Virus record (IMG/VR): IMGVR_UViG_3300020399_000132
Location: 96,001-160,000 of that record
DNA: 64,000 bases
DNA from: a virus
Taxonomy: Duplodnaviria; Caudoviricetes
Reading direction: 5' to 3' (one strand)
Below the pieces are notes generated by a model. The model saw only the letters and a program-made list of their open reading frames with translations. It was not told the origin of the DNA and ran no database searches. Below are positions 2,753 through 23,403 of this stretch, piece by piece. Numbering within the stretch: the first letter of the stretch is position 1; each line of letters opens with the position of its first letter. The position numbers were made by a program, and so were the translations under genes.

Positions 2753-3258
2753 AGCCCGTTATAATATTTTCCAAACAATTTAAATCCTTTAATTATCCGA
2801 TTTTGATATTTCTCCCTACCCTCTACATCATATTCACGAGTATGATTTGGTCCGTATGCCCACGTATACAATGGTTCGCCTTCTTCATCTTTCTTATCAG
2901 GGATTTCAACAAATGATACATCATTTTCTCCTGACGCAAATTCATCTTCCCAATCTTCCAATTTAGATTGAAACGCGAAAATCATTTCGTCCATTACATA
3001 ATCCCAACGAGTAAAATAATGTTTATCAGATTCACCACCGTCCCAATGTTCTTTTAGTTCTTCTTCTGTTGCTCGAAGAAACTTTGGTACATCTTCATTT
3101 TCTACAAAAGGTGCACCTTGTTTAACATCTTTGAGCCTCTTTAGTAGCGGCACAATAATATGTGCAAGTGTCACATCAACGTTCCAAGTATCGTAATCAT
3201 GTATTTCAATTTTTTCTGCCCTATTTTTTCTGGCTGGGTTTCCGAGTCTTACAAACAT
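2743..3258 (-). CDS. Phage hypothetical protein
   Basis: DTWNVD.TLAHII.PLL and GFKLFGKYY..LWD patterns recalled from myophage hypotheticals. Confidence 0.65.
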   Translation of the reverse strand: MFVRLGNPARKNRAEKIEIHDYDTWNVDVTLAHIIVPLLKRLKDVKQGAPFVENEDVPKFLRATEEELKEHWDGGESDKHYFTRWDYVMDEMIFAFQSKLEDWEDEFASGENDVSFVEIPDKKDEEGEPLYTWAYGPNHTREYDVEGREKYQNRIIKGFKLFGKYYNGLWD

Positions 3259-7709: not shown

Positions 7710-8466
7710 CTACATTAATACATCCTACAATATGTATTCTACTTACCTTTCGCGATAAATTAATTCCTGAATGATATACCTCTGTATTCATTAAATGAAC
7801 CTCTCCCGGATATATGTGGTATACTTCTTTATTGCCTTCTATGTTTTCTATAAGATGAAAGCTATCACTATCACCACATAAAGGTATATGAATCCTCATA
7901 CTGGGATCATGATGCCATGACAGACACGATTTAGGTTTTAATAACATCAATCGTGATCTATACATTTTTAATTCTTTAAGTAAATTATTAGTATAAATCA
8001 TTTCCGGAAATAAAGGAATTATAAAATCCTGTTCGCTATATCCTGCTTCTGCTATTTCTTTAAACTCTCTGGAACCAAAATAAACATCATCTTCTTTTCC
8101 CTCAGCTCCTTGAATCATGATTTGACATATGCCCTCTGTTTTCCAGTCTTCTCCAACAACCCTTATCTCTTCAAGGATTTTATCAACATCAATATCATGT
8201 CTAAGAGGCATTGTTCGATTATCGCCTATGTCTGCTCGTAAAGTCATTCTTCCCCTAATATTCGAAAAGTGTTCACATTTTTTAGCAACTCCAGGAATCA
8301 CTGGTAGTTTTATTTTTTTATTTCCTACAAAAATTCTATATTGATTTTTTTCATTTCCACATCTTACTCCCTGACCTAAAGCAACCATCCAAGACATAAA
8401 TTCACAATTATAACAACATTCATAATCTTTGGGGATTTGATTTCTAGTATGTAAATTATATTCCAT
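7693..8466 (-). CDS. Asp/Asn beta-hydroxylase-like 2OG oxygenase with N-terminal Cys-rich segment
   Basis: RSRLM.LKP..CLSWHHD..RIHIPL...HSGIN...RIHIV; N-terminal CCYNC..C..C. Confidence 0.65.
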   Translation of the reverse strand: MEYNLHTRNQIPKDYECCYNCEFMSWMVALGQGVRCGNEKNQYRIFVGNKKIKLPVIPGVAKKCEHFSNIRGRMTLRADIGDNRTMPLRHDIDVDKILEEIRVVGEDWKTEGICQIMIQGAEGKEDDVYFGSREFKEIAEAGYSEQDFIIPLFPEMIYTNNLLKELKMYRSRLMLLKPKSCLSWHHDPSMRIHIPLCGDSDSFHLIENIEGNKEVYHIYPGEVHLMNTEVYHSGINLSRKVSRIHIVGCINVDDENN

Positions 8467-8542
8467 GGAGTTGCCGACAGGAGTCGAACCTGCATAAAAC
8501 AGTTTTGCAAACTGTTGCCTTTAACCATTCAGCCACGGCAAC
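8466..8542 (-). tRNA. tRNA-Cys(GCA)
   Basis: GTTGCCG/CGGCAAC acceptor, ACAGT-TTGCAAA-ACTGT anticodon arm, GGTTCGACTCC T arm, encoded CCA. Confidence 0.93.
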
Positions 8543-19852: not shown

Positions 19853-20371
19853 TCATATTTCGATTCCGGCATCGAACTTTATGTGTTCTACTTCTTTCAT
19901 CCCTATTCCTTTTATGCGATAGGCTTTACCGAAGCCCTTTATATAAGTTCCACGCATAGGAAGAAAACGAAACATCTTAAAGTCATCTAAGGACACTAAA
20001 GTATTTATTATATCTCCAAATTTTGCAGTAAATCGGGATACCAAATCATCCCAGAGTAAATGACCGGCTCCCATTTCTCTAGTTATTTGTAATGTGTTGC
20101 AATAAAAATTAAGGCGTGTTCTAACATATATTTGTTCACATTGTTCTTCAGACTCAATGAACATCAATGATGTATTACGTTGTGCGAGTAATGCTTCGGT
20201 GCGTTTTGAAAGGGTACTTACAAGAACGTAAATGTTCTTATTTTCATCTACTATACAAGGCGAGTAACTTATCTCTGGTGTCATTCCACCTCGAAACTCA
20301 TTCAATGTTGAGATGTAGACACTTTTTGCGGCATTCATGAATTCAACGTATTCATCATAAATCTTTTTCAT
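19853..20371 (-). CDS. HugZ/HutZ-like pyridoxamine-phosphate-oxidase-fold protein
   Basis: PEISYSP, SLMFIESE, RTRL, DFKMFRF...YIKGFGKAY. Confidence 0.8.
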   Translation of the reverse strand: MKKIYDEYVEFMNAAKSVYISTLNEFRGGMTPEISYSPCIVDENKNIYVLVSTLSKRTEALLAQRNTSLMFIESEEQCEQIYVRTRLNFYCNTLQITREMGAGHLLWDDLVSRFTAKFGDIINTLVSLDDFKMFRFLPMRGTYIKGFGKAYRIKGIGMKEVEHIKFDAGIEI

Positions 20372-20386
20372 AATATATTTTATGTT

Positions 20387-20629
20387 TTATTTTTTTGGTT
20401 CGTCTGGAAGGTATCGTCTACTCTTTTTAAGGATCCTATCTTTTCTCTTCTTTTTTTCTTTTTGCTTCTCTTTTTCCTTATCTGTTAGAGCTAGCATAGG
20501 AGGACTCTCTTGAGTATCTGAATACGTTGGTCTAACAGCAGCGGCAAATGATGTAGTTGAAAGCTTTTCAGTGGGGTTGAGATGAGGATGAGCTTCGAAG
20601 AATGCTCCAAATTCTTTAAATGTTTTCAT
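20387..20629 (-). CDS. Putative internal head protein
   Basis: MKTFKEF..FFE resembles T4 capsid-targeting sequence MKTYQEFIAE; basic tail. Confidence 0.55.
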   Translation of the reverse strand: MKTFKEFGAFFEAHPHLNPTEKLSTTSFAAAVRPTYSDTQESPPMLALTDKEKEKQKEKKKRKDRILKKSRRYLPDEPKK

Positions 20630-20644
20630 ATTACATGGACATTT

Positions 20645-21121
20645 CTACTTTAATTTTTTAGGTGGGTGCTTGTGAGTTTGTTCTCTTGTTATTGTAACTT
20701 CTGATGCTTCCAGAACCACGTTGGATCCAATTTGTGAAGCAGGAGGTGGAATAACTACATATTGTTCTATGTTGCCCCTTTTATCTAAGCTATGGCTAAC
20801 TACTACTAATTCTTCCTCACCCAAACTTGAGTGTCGAACATGAGTAGCTCAATTATGTTCCAGAGCTTTTTCAGAGATTGTGTCTAATTTATCAGCTATC
20901 CACGTATAGGGGTCACCATCGCGAGCTTTTGCTACTCCGTATGGCATATCTGTCTGCCAGTGATTCATTAATGCATCATATAACTTTGGCAAATCTAGTA
21001 AATCTTCTTTACCATCTTTAAATGCTTTGTAATCTTTAGCATGTGCTTTGAGAATATTTTGGAGTTCTCGATCCATGCGTAATTCTTGTTCATCAATTAC
21101 ATGCTCTATGAATGTCTTCAT
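20645..21121 (-). CDS. Putative internal head protein with in-frame TGA (candidate selenoprotein, 158 aa)
   Basis: MKTFIEHVIDE start; frame stays open 67 codons past TGA 20849-20851 (HN-TGA-ATHVRH...HKHPPKKLK-TAG); SECIS-like hairpin downstream. Confidence 0.65.
20818..20848 (-). promoter_or_regulatory. Candidate bacterial SECIS element
   Basis: CACTCA-AGTT-TGGGTG hairpin; apical loop starts 21 nt after UGA and has GU at loop positions 2-3. Confidence 0.55.
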
Positions 21122-23403
21122 CCGGTTAATTTCCTTTTCTTATTCCATACTCCGAGAAAACCACCCTTATAATATATGTGTGGTTCTCCACCCTTTTTGA
21201 ATGACTTCGCTAGGGTCTTTTCAGCTTTTACAACATCTTTTTTATCTACCCATAGCTTACCATCTTCCCAATAGCTTTTAATACCAGCGTCATCTAATGC
21301 CATATTAGCTTGGAGCTTATTACTCTCGTCAATTTTCTTTTTAGCTGCTCTATCGAATTTAAATGCTTGATAATCTTTCTTAGCTGCTTGGTAATCTGCG
21401 CGTTTCGATTTAAGATTTTGTCCTGGTGGTTGACTAGTGTCTCCAACCCTTGAAGCGGCTCGATCTGATACAGCTCTTTGTTGCCCAGCTTTCTTTTTAG
21501 CTGCTTGTCCTGCGCGTTGTAACAGGTCTTTCGAAAGTTCGTTAACGGAATTGGTTTTATCGCGGCTTTTAGCAAGAAACAGTTTGTCCCGCGTTTTCTT
21601 CTGACTGCCTACCGACCTGGCCATCATCTCATTTTTACTTGTTACCTTCTCCACTGCTTTCTTAGCTATGTGCTTTATTGCTTTTCTAGCAATGAACGCA
21701 CCAACTGGTCCGAGTTCCTTAACCTCAACTTCGTCATAAAAAGTACCTCTGGTAGCTTGCTTTCCTGGATTTCTCCGCTTCTCTCTTCCGACTGTAGTTC
21801 TAAACAGACTTTTGGAAATTGGACCATCCGGTTGTTTTTCAACTTTTCCACCTTTCTTTTTAAAAGCAGCGATTTTGTCAGCGTAATCGCTTTCTTTTTC
21901 ATCAATAACATCTTCCTTTTTAAAAGCTGTATCCCGTTGCTTGACATCGACGGCCGCACTGAATTTTCCGGCTTGTTTCTCTCTCTTTGCTGCCTTTTTG
22001 CCTGCTTCGTCAGCACCAAAAGCATGTCCTTTACCTTTCACTCTCGTCGCCCAATCTTGTGCGTCTCTTTGTGTTGCGGCATCCTTCTTTGCTGCGCCGG
22101 CTGCGCGGTTTAATAGTCCAGTTGAGATTTCATCAACAACTTCTCCTGCTCTTGCCTTTTTAAGCTTAGCTAGAGTTTCTGGAGTGGTAGGAACTGCTCT
22201 AGCCTTCTTCCTCATCTCTGATTCTTTTCTTTTATGATCATACATATCTATGCCGGATGAATCAACTTCATTAACTTTATCTCTTAACTCAGCGAAAGTC
22301 TTCTTATTACCTTCAACATAACCAGTATACTTATCTTTCTTAGGATTCTGATTTGGGTAACCGTGTTTCTTTACTGATTCTCTCTTCTTTATTGTGCCGA
22401 CATATTCATCTACCATTTTTCCATCCTTGTAATGAGCGGCATGTTTATGATCACCGCCGCCTTTACGAATCTTATCTAATTTTTTATCATCCTGATATCT
22501 ACTTGAACTATAATTTTGACCAGTTTTTGTATTTTTAATACTATACTGCGGTCTTTTTAAACTTTTTATTAACTCTAGTGCATTTTTGTCTTCATCAACT
22601 TCTACTTCTTCATTTGTCCGGAATCCAGCTTGTACTGGATTATCTATTGTACCAAAAACATATTGATGCAAATCTTTAGGTACAATCTTTTTGGCTTTTG
22701 CTTCCATATCTCTTTGAACATATATTCTGTCTCCAAAATACATAGAGTTACCATACTTTGCTGGTATACCTTTTTTCTTTAAAAGTGCGATTGCTTTCTC
22801 AGAATCTTTTTTAATTTCTGGATGCTTCCTACCTTTAGGATCGGGTTTTGACTTGTCTCTGCTGTCTTCAACAATTTCTACTTCTTCTAATACACGTTTT
22901 AAAGTAGTTTTCTCTCTTTTTGTTAATCCACCAATGCCATCAACCCATGCATCTTTGTCTGCCGTAGAAGTTTTATCGCCCATTTTCATCTTGAATTTTT
23001 TAACATAGTCATTCAGATTTGCTTCATCGATGTAGAACTCTTCTTTAGCAAGTAAAACTGCTATCTTCTTTAGATTTTCTCTTTCTGATTTGCTAAGCAT
23101 TTTTAATGCTCTATCATTAGCTATTTTCTCAAGAGATTTGGCATATTCTTTTGTAGATTCATCAACATCTACACCCCTTATCCTGTTAAAAAATTTTTGA
23201 TACGTTTCTTTATGGGTAAGGCCTAACTTCTGTAGTCTTTTCTTTTTCTCATCCGTATCTGTTAGCGCTTTGGATCTTATGTCTGGCCGATCAGGCTTCA
23301 CTTGACCCATAGAATCTGGTTTACACTGCGACGCCAGAGCAGACGTTTTGGACAATCCAGGAGTGTCGCAAAATGCAGGTCTCTCTTGGAGGTTTTCTGA
23401 CAT
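21118..23403 (-). CDS. Large basic modular protein, putative internal head polyprotein
   Basis: Lys-rich blocks separated by repeated [VI]-[DNK]-E motifs matching T4 gp21 cleavage consensus. Confidence 0.6.
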   Translation of the reverse strand: MSENLQERPAFCDTPGLSKTSALASQCKPDSMGQVKPDRPDIRSKALTDTDEKKKRLQKLGLTHKETYQKFFNRIRGVDVDESTKEYAKSLEKIANDRALKMLSKSERENLKKIAVLLAKEEFYIDEANLNDYVKKFKMKMGDKTSTADKDAWVDGIGGLTKREKTTLKRVLEEVEIVEDSRDKSKPDPKGRKHPEIKKDSEKAIALLKKKGIPAKYGNSMYFGDRIYVQRDMEAKAKKIVPKDLHQYVFGTIDNPVQAGFRTNEEVEVDEDKNALELIKSLKRPQYSIKNTKTGQNYSSSRYQDDKKLDKIRKGGGDHKHAAHYKDGKMVDEYVGTIKKRESVKKHGYPNQNPKKDKYTGYVEGNKKTFAELRDKVNEVDSSGIDMYDHKRKESEMRKKARAVPTTPETLAKLKKARAGEVVDEISTGLLNRAAGAAKKDAATQRDAQDWATRVKGKGHAFGADEAGKKAAKREKQAGKFSAAVDVKQRDTAFKKEDVIDEKESDYADKIAAFKKKGGKVEKQPDGPISKSLFRTTVGREKRRNPGKQATRGTFYDEVEVKELGPVGAFIARKAIKHIAKKAVEKVTSKNEMMARSVGSQKKTRDKLFLAKSRDKTNSVNELSKDLLQRAGQAAKKKAGQQRAVSDRAASRVGDTSQPPGQNLKSKRADYQAAKKDYQAFKFDRAAKKKIDESNKLQANMALDDAGIKSYWEDGKLWVDKKDVVKAEKTLAKSFKKGGEPHIYYKGGFLGVWNKKRKLTG

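Follow-up and report, generated by a model that had tools for sequence, protein, structure and literature searches.

The locus considered here lies on a 64,000-nucleotide stretch of viral DNA, hereafter the window, that corresponds to positions 96001-160000 of a 177,419-bp virus record (IMGVR_UViG_3300020399_000132) rated as complete by CheckV. By its sequence, the virus is a marine T4-like myophage with a G+C content of 33.6%; its gp46 protein has 49% identity with that of Methylophilales phage Melnitz and 46-47% with those of cyanomyoviruses, and the nearest relatives of its gp22 scaffold protein are found in Pelagibacter phage HTVC008M and Melnitz. The gene in question, located on the minus strand like all the genes in this part of the window, starts with an ATG at 21121 and contains an in-frame TGA; it is a candidate for a phage selenoprotein gene, in which a hairpin resembling a selenocysteine insertion sequence (SECIS) would direct the reading of the UGA as selenocysteine (Sec). 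The features of the locus are collected in Table 1.

The UGA and its position in the protein family

As for the arrangement of the gene, an open reading frame (ORF) of 90 residues (21121-20849) stops at the TGA at 20851-20849, and the same frame continues beyond it for 67 sense codons up to a TAG (20647-20645), which is separated by 15 nt from the ATG of the next gene. The extension has no ATG in any of its 67 codons; its first alternative start is a TTG at 20824, and no Shine-Dalgarno-like sequence precedes it. The original prediction had described this same arrangement and had taken TGA to be a normal stop elsewhere, and both descriptions are confirmed: TGA terminates 66 of the 167 long minus-strand ORFs of the 177-kb genome, so there is no global reassignment and the standard code applies. 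In a scan of the whole genome, an in-frame TGA junction without a downstream ATG occurred only at this gene, and a combined test, which required a hairpin as well as an in-frame TGA flanked on either side by an open frame, was applied to the genome and to about 35 related loci; this family alone passed it. Outside the window, in a radical-SAM island of the same genome (G000:C1 ~47538, minus strand), two same-frame ORFs of 196 and 254 amino acids are split only by a TGA; here the first downstream ATG is 25 codons in, and the pair did not pass the hairpin filter.

That the extension belongs to the gene, is conserved and is not a separate gene in relatives, as the prediction implied, is borne out by the close homologs. 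Seven proteins matched the read-through product in a protein search: a 179-amino acid "fused" protein, whose W at the column of the UGA is a TGA read as W; four proteins of 90-96 amino acids that end at the same ...HN; one downstream fragment; and P0008, a protein of 255 amino acids in which the N-terminal domain (N-domain) is joined without a stop to the C-terminal domain (C-domain), with Cys at the column. At the DNA level, seven lineages (the window, L002, L003-12, L017, L018, L019-21 and L022-23) have TGA at the identical codon and a conserved frame downstream of it. The ratio of nonsynonymous to synonymous substitution rates (dN/dS, Nei-Gojobori) is 0.15-0.23 after the UGA, at a synonymous divergence of 0.5-0.6, and 0.08-0.17 before it; in the eight codons from the UGA to the TTG, the changes are mostly synonymous or conservative. 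The conserved frame and the dN/dS values indicate that the extension is translated in this frame and is under selection, and it is very probable on these grounds that the UGA is decoded. Moreover, about 35 distinct sequences, assembled independently of one another, have this TGA together with the frame and the hairpin, which rules out an assembly error.

Some relatives differ in the extent of the protein. In a sister lineage (L013-L015 of IMG/VR, 3001-3246), the 82-amino acid N-domain is found alone, with an ATGA overlap into the MKTFKEF gene and with the C-domain absent, so the C-domain is a separable module. At the other end, the tails of L017, L018, L003 and L022 carry an extra KVEMSMKKRRxMGxM after PPKKIK; the window copy ends right after PPKKLK (20645-20660), its tail being truncated.

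Regarding the residue at the UGA column, a HMMER search with the C-domain against 1.8 billion representatives returned ten matches; four small ones show "W" at the column, in all four cases a TGA read as W, and the remaining ones have Cys, including proteins of 400-840 amino acids with two tandem copies of the domain. IMG/VR was scanned with patterns of increasing tolerance. The TGA pattern gave 31 stretches, all of them (31/31) family members with frames open on both sides; with the codon left free, all real members proved to have TGA (23 of 23), and two further matches, both AAA, were unrelated; with TGN in a broader context, the column was TGT in 58 cases, TGC in 23, TGA in 47 and TGG in 3, each of the TGG cases being a chance match to an unrelated sequence. 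Neither TAA nor TAG occurred at the column. The alternation of Cys and TGA that had been foreseen is thus present, with Trp never at this place, and the marine phage domain named in the original prediction (H-D-C-A-T-H-V ... HxH, with Cys at the position of the UGA) exists in exactly that form.

In an alignment of 49 sequences of this unannotated domain of about 65 residues, H89, U91, A92, T93, H94, H110 and Y121 are invariant, and H97, G101, G116 and H150, the first His of the terminal H-x-H, are at least 90% conserved in the domain alignments. Upstream of the column, TGA and Cys forms remain homologous over about 15 residues (D-L-N/D-x-x-N-x-x-K-A-I-x-H-D). The typical TGA form has about 88 amino acids with the UGA at about codon 24, and termination at this codon would leave a peptide of only 23 residues. 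Cys forms are represented in 109 cyanomyovirus records of GenBank; TGA forms were found in uncultured phages only, and in none of the cultured ones. A quick tree grouped the TGA forms in two clades, one with 34 members and good support and the other with 5 members, which may reflect one or two origins.

Table 1. Features of the candidate selenoprotein gene, its neighbours and the hairpin types of the TGA forms (positions in the window)
Feature	Position	Strand	Description	Basis or remark
Proposed selenoprotein gene	20645..21121	(-)	158 codons + TAG	UGA at codon 91
Proposed Sec codon	20849..20851	(-)	UGA, codon 91, in invariant H89-N-U91-A-T-H94	TGA in close lineages, Cys in distant homologs
SECIS-like hairpin	20818..20833	(-)	CACUCA-AGUU-UGGGUG; 6 bp including one G-U pair, GU-containing tetraloop	Specific to TGA forms
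Leader	21089..21121	(-)	MKTFIEHVIDE; like the T4 capsid-targeting sequence, ends in I-D-E gp21-type site (residues 9-11)	
Possible prohead-protease site	20870..20878	(-)	I-S-E, residues 82-84	Motif search
Helical N-domain	20879..21091	(-)	Residues ~11-81, contains DMPYGVxKARDGDPYEW	AlphaFold2 pLDDT 82-92; stand-alone 82-aa protein in relatives
Small beta-barrel	20672..20857	(-)	Residues 89-150, His-rich, five strands	Alignments; domain-only model pLDDT 81
Basic tail	20648-20671	(-)	Lysine-rich, after the barrel	
Upstream gene	21118..23403	(-)	761-aa basic protein; ATGA overlap with the start of the candidate	Part of putative capsid-cargo block
Downstream gene	20387..20629	(-)	80 aa; starts MKTFKEF = T4 ipI residues 1-7	Leader comparison
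Hairpin type A			CAYYCA-AGUU-UGGGUG	Encodes HPSLG
Hairpin type B			GCACC-GGUC-GGUGC	Encodes APVG
Hairpin type C			AGUGGAA-GUC-UUCCACU	Encodes EWKSST
aa, amino acids; pLDDT, predicted local distance difference test.

The hairpin downstream of the UGA

The hairpin of the window copy was located at the place given by the original prediction (20833-20818), with the stem starting 15 nt and the loop 21 nt past the UGA. When a hairpin was defined by a stem of 4-7 bp that starts 10-17 nt past the UGA and by a loop of 3-4 nt containing GU, it was present in 35 of 35 distinct TGA forms versus one of 60 distinct Cys forms, despite the higher G+C content of the latter. Among the TGA forms, the loop lies some 18-22 nt past the UGA and reads AGUU, GGUC, GUC or GGU. 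The three hairpin types A, B and C have unrelated sequences, occupy the same place and encode different peptides; types B and C offer no possible start codon in the hairpin stretch.

In the type A stem, the synonymous positions are frozen: Leu is encoded by TTG in 31 of 31 sequences (versus 5% elsewhere in these genes), Pro by CCA in 29 of 29 and Ser by AGT in 30 of 30. Counting of the pairs of type A gave 88.8% of cells paired, versus 19-54% for slid controls. The structural case is therefore made by a hairpin that is replaced by others in place, that is absent from the Cys forms and whose codons are frozen, and not by classical covariation; of the check proposed at the outset, namely hairpin covariation in TGA-type copies, the specificity for the TGA forms came out clearly and the covariation within each type proved weak. 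A compensation of types A and B in strict register was considered and dropped, since in the ungapped alignment the loops of the different types are shifted by 1-3 nt.

In bacteria, the SECIS consensus is a stem-loop that follows the UGA directly on its 3' side and whose apical loop contains a G and lies at a distance of 16-37 nt; this consensus reportedly goes back to Zhang and Gladyshev (2005). The position and loop composition of the phage hairpin fit the consensus. GGUC, the type B loop, is also the apical loop of fdhF. The candidate resembles the bacterial selenoprotein genes with a SECIS inside the ORF, whose prototype is Escherichia coli fdhF, in having the UGA at the Cys position of the homologs and a stem-loop immediately 3' of it in the coding sequence, and it resembles the bacterial SECIS in the G/U of a small apical loop at about 18-22 nt from the UGA. 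It differs from the classical elements in its shorter stems and in the lack of a bulged U, from bacterial selenoprotein genes in being encoded by a phage without Sec machinery of its own, and from the known selenoprotein families in that its protein family is unannotated.

Proposed decoding of the UGA

Four features support the Sec reading: the UGA alternates only with Cys, the downstream frame is translated and under selection, a hairpin specific to the UGA forms sits where a SECIS is expected, and other genes of the genome end in TGA in the ordinary way. This combination is the usual computational mark of a bacterial selenoprotein, and the stretch 20645-21121 (minus strand) is likely a single gene for a selenoprotein decoded by SelB and a SECIS, whose product is probably a capsid cargo; that the residue at the UGA is specifically Sec is considered likely to the same degree. 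At its core, the original prediction was that a phage gene recodes, locally and next to a SECIS-like hairpin, a UGA that takes the place of a Cys codon; this is upheld by the alternation, by the conserved extension and by the TGA-specific hairpin. In the proposed mechanism, the 16-nt hairpin, 15 nt past the UGA, would act as a bacterial-type SECIS and would recruit the SelB.GTP.Sec-tRNA(Sec) complex of the host, in competition with release factor 2.

Several points weigh against this reading. No tRNA-Sec, SelB or SelD scored over the cut-off in this phage and in three related phage genomes (G000-G003), and hence decoding would depend on the host machinery; likewise, no second selenoprotein was found in this genome, either as SelW/Rdx or in the genome-wide scan for TGA plus hairpin. 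Covariation in type A is scant, with both-side changes at one pair only and the rest being G-C to G-U, and the hairpins are short, with 4-7 bp and energies of -3.5 to -9.8 kcal/mol. With the TGA forms confined to one or two clades, their counts do not represent independent events. Finally, an alpha-type transfer-messenger RNA (tmRNA), the low G+C content and the pelagimyophage affinity make a SAR11 host possible; selC was reported in a preprint to be absent from 135 Pelagibacter genomes (10.64898/2026.04.03.716425), and a SAR11 host without selC would exclude Sec. The same preprint finds the Sec machinery in Actinomarina, which are abundant marine bacteria (10.64898/2026.04.03.716425), and marine communities are enriched in Sec use (PMC5029168).

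Regarding the RNA genes and the host, the tmRNA is of the permuted two-piece type and lies outside the window (G000:C1:6658-7043, minus strand); it has 109 bits with RF04321 and 61.7 bits with alpha_tmRNA (RF01849), it was not called by ARAGORN, and it is a possible clue toward Alphaproteobacteria. The phage encodes four tRNAs (Cys, Val, Tyr and Asn), and no suppressor tRNA was found in its genome. The tRNA-Cys(GCA), at 8466-8542 of the window (minus strand), has 77 nt, with a 6-bp anticodon stem and a 3-bp D stem in the ARAGORN drawing, and it scores 34 bits on the tRNA-Sec model, under the cut-off. A Flavobacteriaceae metagenome-assembled genome without SelB and tRNA-Sec was set aside as host evidence: it holds one real family member on a 15-kb contig, judged to be a binning artefact and uninformative.

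The main rival is a programmed read-through of the UGA without selenium, in which a near-cognate tRNA (Trp or Cys) adds an ordinary amino acid while the hairpin holds up termination, giving a short and a long isoform in a fixed ratio like A1 of Q-beta. UGA is the leakiest bacterial stop, and the strict conservation of TGA fits this explanation as well as it fits Sec; also in its favour are the lack of phage-encoded Sec machinery, a host that possibly belongs to a Sec-less lineage and the odd tRNA-Cys(GCA), and the 82-amino acid N-domain that exists alone in L013-15 makes a two-isoform design plausible for the window gene. In the ~88-amino acid form, however, the short isoform would be a leader peptide of 23 residues, and the column is Cys in 81 scan matches and never Trp, which would destroy the motif. 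As for a Cys-inserting tRNA, the phage tRNA-Cys(GCA) was rejected as the reader of the UGA, given that it pairs with UGY and that a related TGA-form genome has no tRNA-Cys in the tRNA regions examined. The GU loop at about 18-22 nt from the UGA matches instead the elements of the SelB type, and we know of no established bacterial mechanism for read-through stimulated by a hairpin; overall, a read-through of this kind is unlikely, although it is the alternative to be taken most seriously.

If the UGA were a true stop, two products could still arise through re-initiation of the C-domain at the TTG at 20824, or at a GTG in some relatives, which is where gene callers place a separate downstream gene; this TTG is invariant in 31 of 31 type A sequences, though rare elsewhere. 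Stem pairing explains the TTG, no Shine-Dalgarno sequence stands before it, and hairpin types B and C have no start codon of any kind in the stretch. Furthermore, the eight codons from the UGA to the TTG are conserved as protein and homologous to the CATHVxH of the fused Cys forms, and the invariant H89, U91 and H94 would be lost from the product, all of which makes separate initiation quite improbable. Least credible is a broken gene or an artefact, the TGA being either an assembly error or a nonsense mutation that hit a fusion gene in decay: TGT or TGC becomes TGA by a single transversion and one lineage has lost the C-domain altogether, but about 35 distinct sequences, assembled independently and spread over several sub-clades, share the same TGA, purifying selection downstream is strong and none of the copies has a disrupted frame. 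This last explanation is effectively refuted already.

If decoded as Sec, the product would consist of a T4-like capsid-targeting leader, the helical N-domain, a small beta-barrel with Sec91 and His, and a lysine-rich tail. In the AlphaFold2 model, built with the family alignment, U91 is in the first strand of the barrel. The one Sec or Cys and the four conserved histidines (His89, His94, His110 and His150) suggest a metal-binding or redox centre, which the barrel would probably carry. Fold searches (Foldseek, VIA) gave only generic SH3/KOW/Tudor-like barrels with Z of about 5; the best match (Spt5/NusG KOW, Z 5.3) is inside the stated background range of the tool. Pfam has no family for either half or for the scanned homologs, the domain profile had no match among PDB sequences, and a search of the ESM Atlas by features gave unnamed viral clusters only; in PHROGs, there was one weak match spanning the UGA (phrog_22379, E = 5e-4).

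The cyanomyovirus Cys forms, such as PSSM7_192 of P-SSM7, and the tandem proteins P0014, P0015 and P0018 share with the window domain the H-x-C-A-T-H...H...Y...H-x-H barrel and the lysine tail, with 25-34% identity. They differ from it in having TGT or TGC and no hairpin, often a second Cys about 15 residues on, and often two tandem copies in proteins of 400-840 amino acids. PSSM7_192 is annotated as "possible cytitidyltransferase", T4-like GC 715; this label found no support, for neither the window protein nor P0010, P0012 and P0014-P0016 gave a nucleotidyltransferase match in Pfam, and the domain profile had no PDB sequence match. In some tandem Cys-form proteins (P0015/P0018; L129), the second copy has a CxxCxGxG insertion between strands, similar to a DnaJ-type zinc finger, which fits a metal-related role of the domain.

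Proposed capsid targeting, gene neighbourhood and significance

The first ten residues of the T4 internal protein IPIII are enough for packaging; among them, targeting depends most on residues 4 and 7, and processing on residues 8 and 10 (PMC9026906). The T4 leaders are MKTYQEFIAEA in ipII and ipIII and MKTFKEF in ipI, and that of the family members is MKT[FY]xEF; the resemblance to the T4 leader noted in the original prediction is close in the family and less so in the window copy (MKTFIEH), which is less canonical with its His at position 7. Only three ORFs with such a leader exist in the genome, and two of them are adjacent at this locus. The predicted gp21-type site ahead of the C-domain was also found, together with the one at the end of the leader, and the genome encodes a prohead protease of the gp21 type (Peptidase_S77, PF03420; 116 bits, G000:167583-168059). 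The L003 lineage has L-S-E at the place of I-S-E, and most short family members have no [ILV]-x-E site past the leader. Cleavage at I-S-E would possibly free the C-domain. From these sequence motifs, the window protein is probably a capsid cargo: the leader would probably pack it into the prohead, where the gp21-type protease would trim it at [ILV]-x-E, and the protein would be delivered with the DNA.

Such a cargo would be comparable to IPI, IPII, IPIII and Alt of T4, with which the family shares the MKT[FY]xEF type of leader, the [ILV]-x-E sites, the small and basic character, a variable non-core block and the gp21-type protease. There is no similarity to the T4 internal proteins past the leader, and the window copy has His for Phe at position 7. 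Regarding gene order, ipII and ipIII adjoin denV in T4 (L195 6940-8416), and the Cys-form gene of P-SSM7 is four genes downstream of denV (L001 1-4378); the vicinity of denV may be a conserved "internal protein" locus.

As for the neighbours, the 80-amino acid protein encoded downstream of the candidate is probably a second capsid-targeted protein, judging from its leader. The upstream 761-amino acid gene contains a module of 33 residues (KVTSKNEMM...SRDKTN; 21550-21648, minus strand) that recurs in the L022/L023 homologs of the candidate as an insertion in the C-terminal tail (L022:1049-1690), which suggests module shuffling among putative capsid-cargo proteins. Directly downstream of the block, a 172-amino acid protein (19853-20371, minus strand) matches PNPOx_N (pyridoxamine 5'-phosphate oxidase-like) with 29.5 bits, barely above the cut-off. 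An Rfam scan of 20400-21300 gave no relevant match, and a megablast of the region against GenBank phages gave none.

Literature searches returned no paper on a selenoprotein encoded by a bacteriophage, and in them the term "viral selenoprotein" occurred only in papers on viruses of animals and humans. The glutathione peroxidase homologs of molluscum contagiosum and fowlpox viruses are cases where a viral UGA is read as Sec by the host machinery; these eukaryotic-virus selenoproteins differ from the phage candidate in having a SECIS in the 3'-untranslated region, a known enzyme family and animal hosts.

In conclusion, if the Sec reading is true, the TGA forms would constitute a widespread family of phage selenoproteins, and phages would exploit the UGA recoding of their hosts for a protein of their own. 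Gene callers would then systematically split or shorten such genes, here into fragments of 90 and 59-79 amino acids, or call the TGA as W. The domain would be a new one based on Sec or Cys and His, in a protein that is probably delivered into the cell at infection. In its widest form, which is put forward tentatively and is rather less probable than the decoding itself, the proposal is that of a widespread family of marine phage proteins whose His-rich centre contains a Sec decoded by the host, and which enter the capsid by means of a T4-type leader and are co-injected with the DNA as a selenium-dependent early effector, the UGA tying these phages to Sec-competent hosts. The UGA form would accordingly predict a Sec-competent host and provide a new host marker for uncultured marine myophages.
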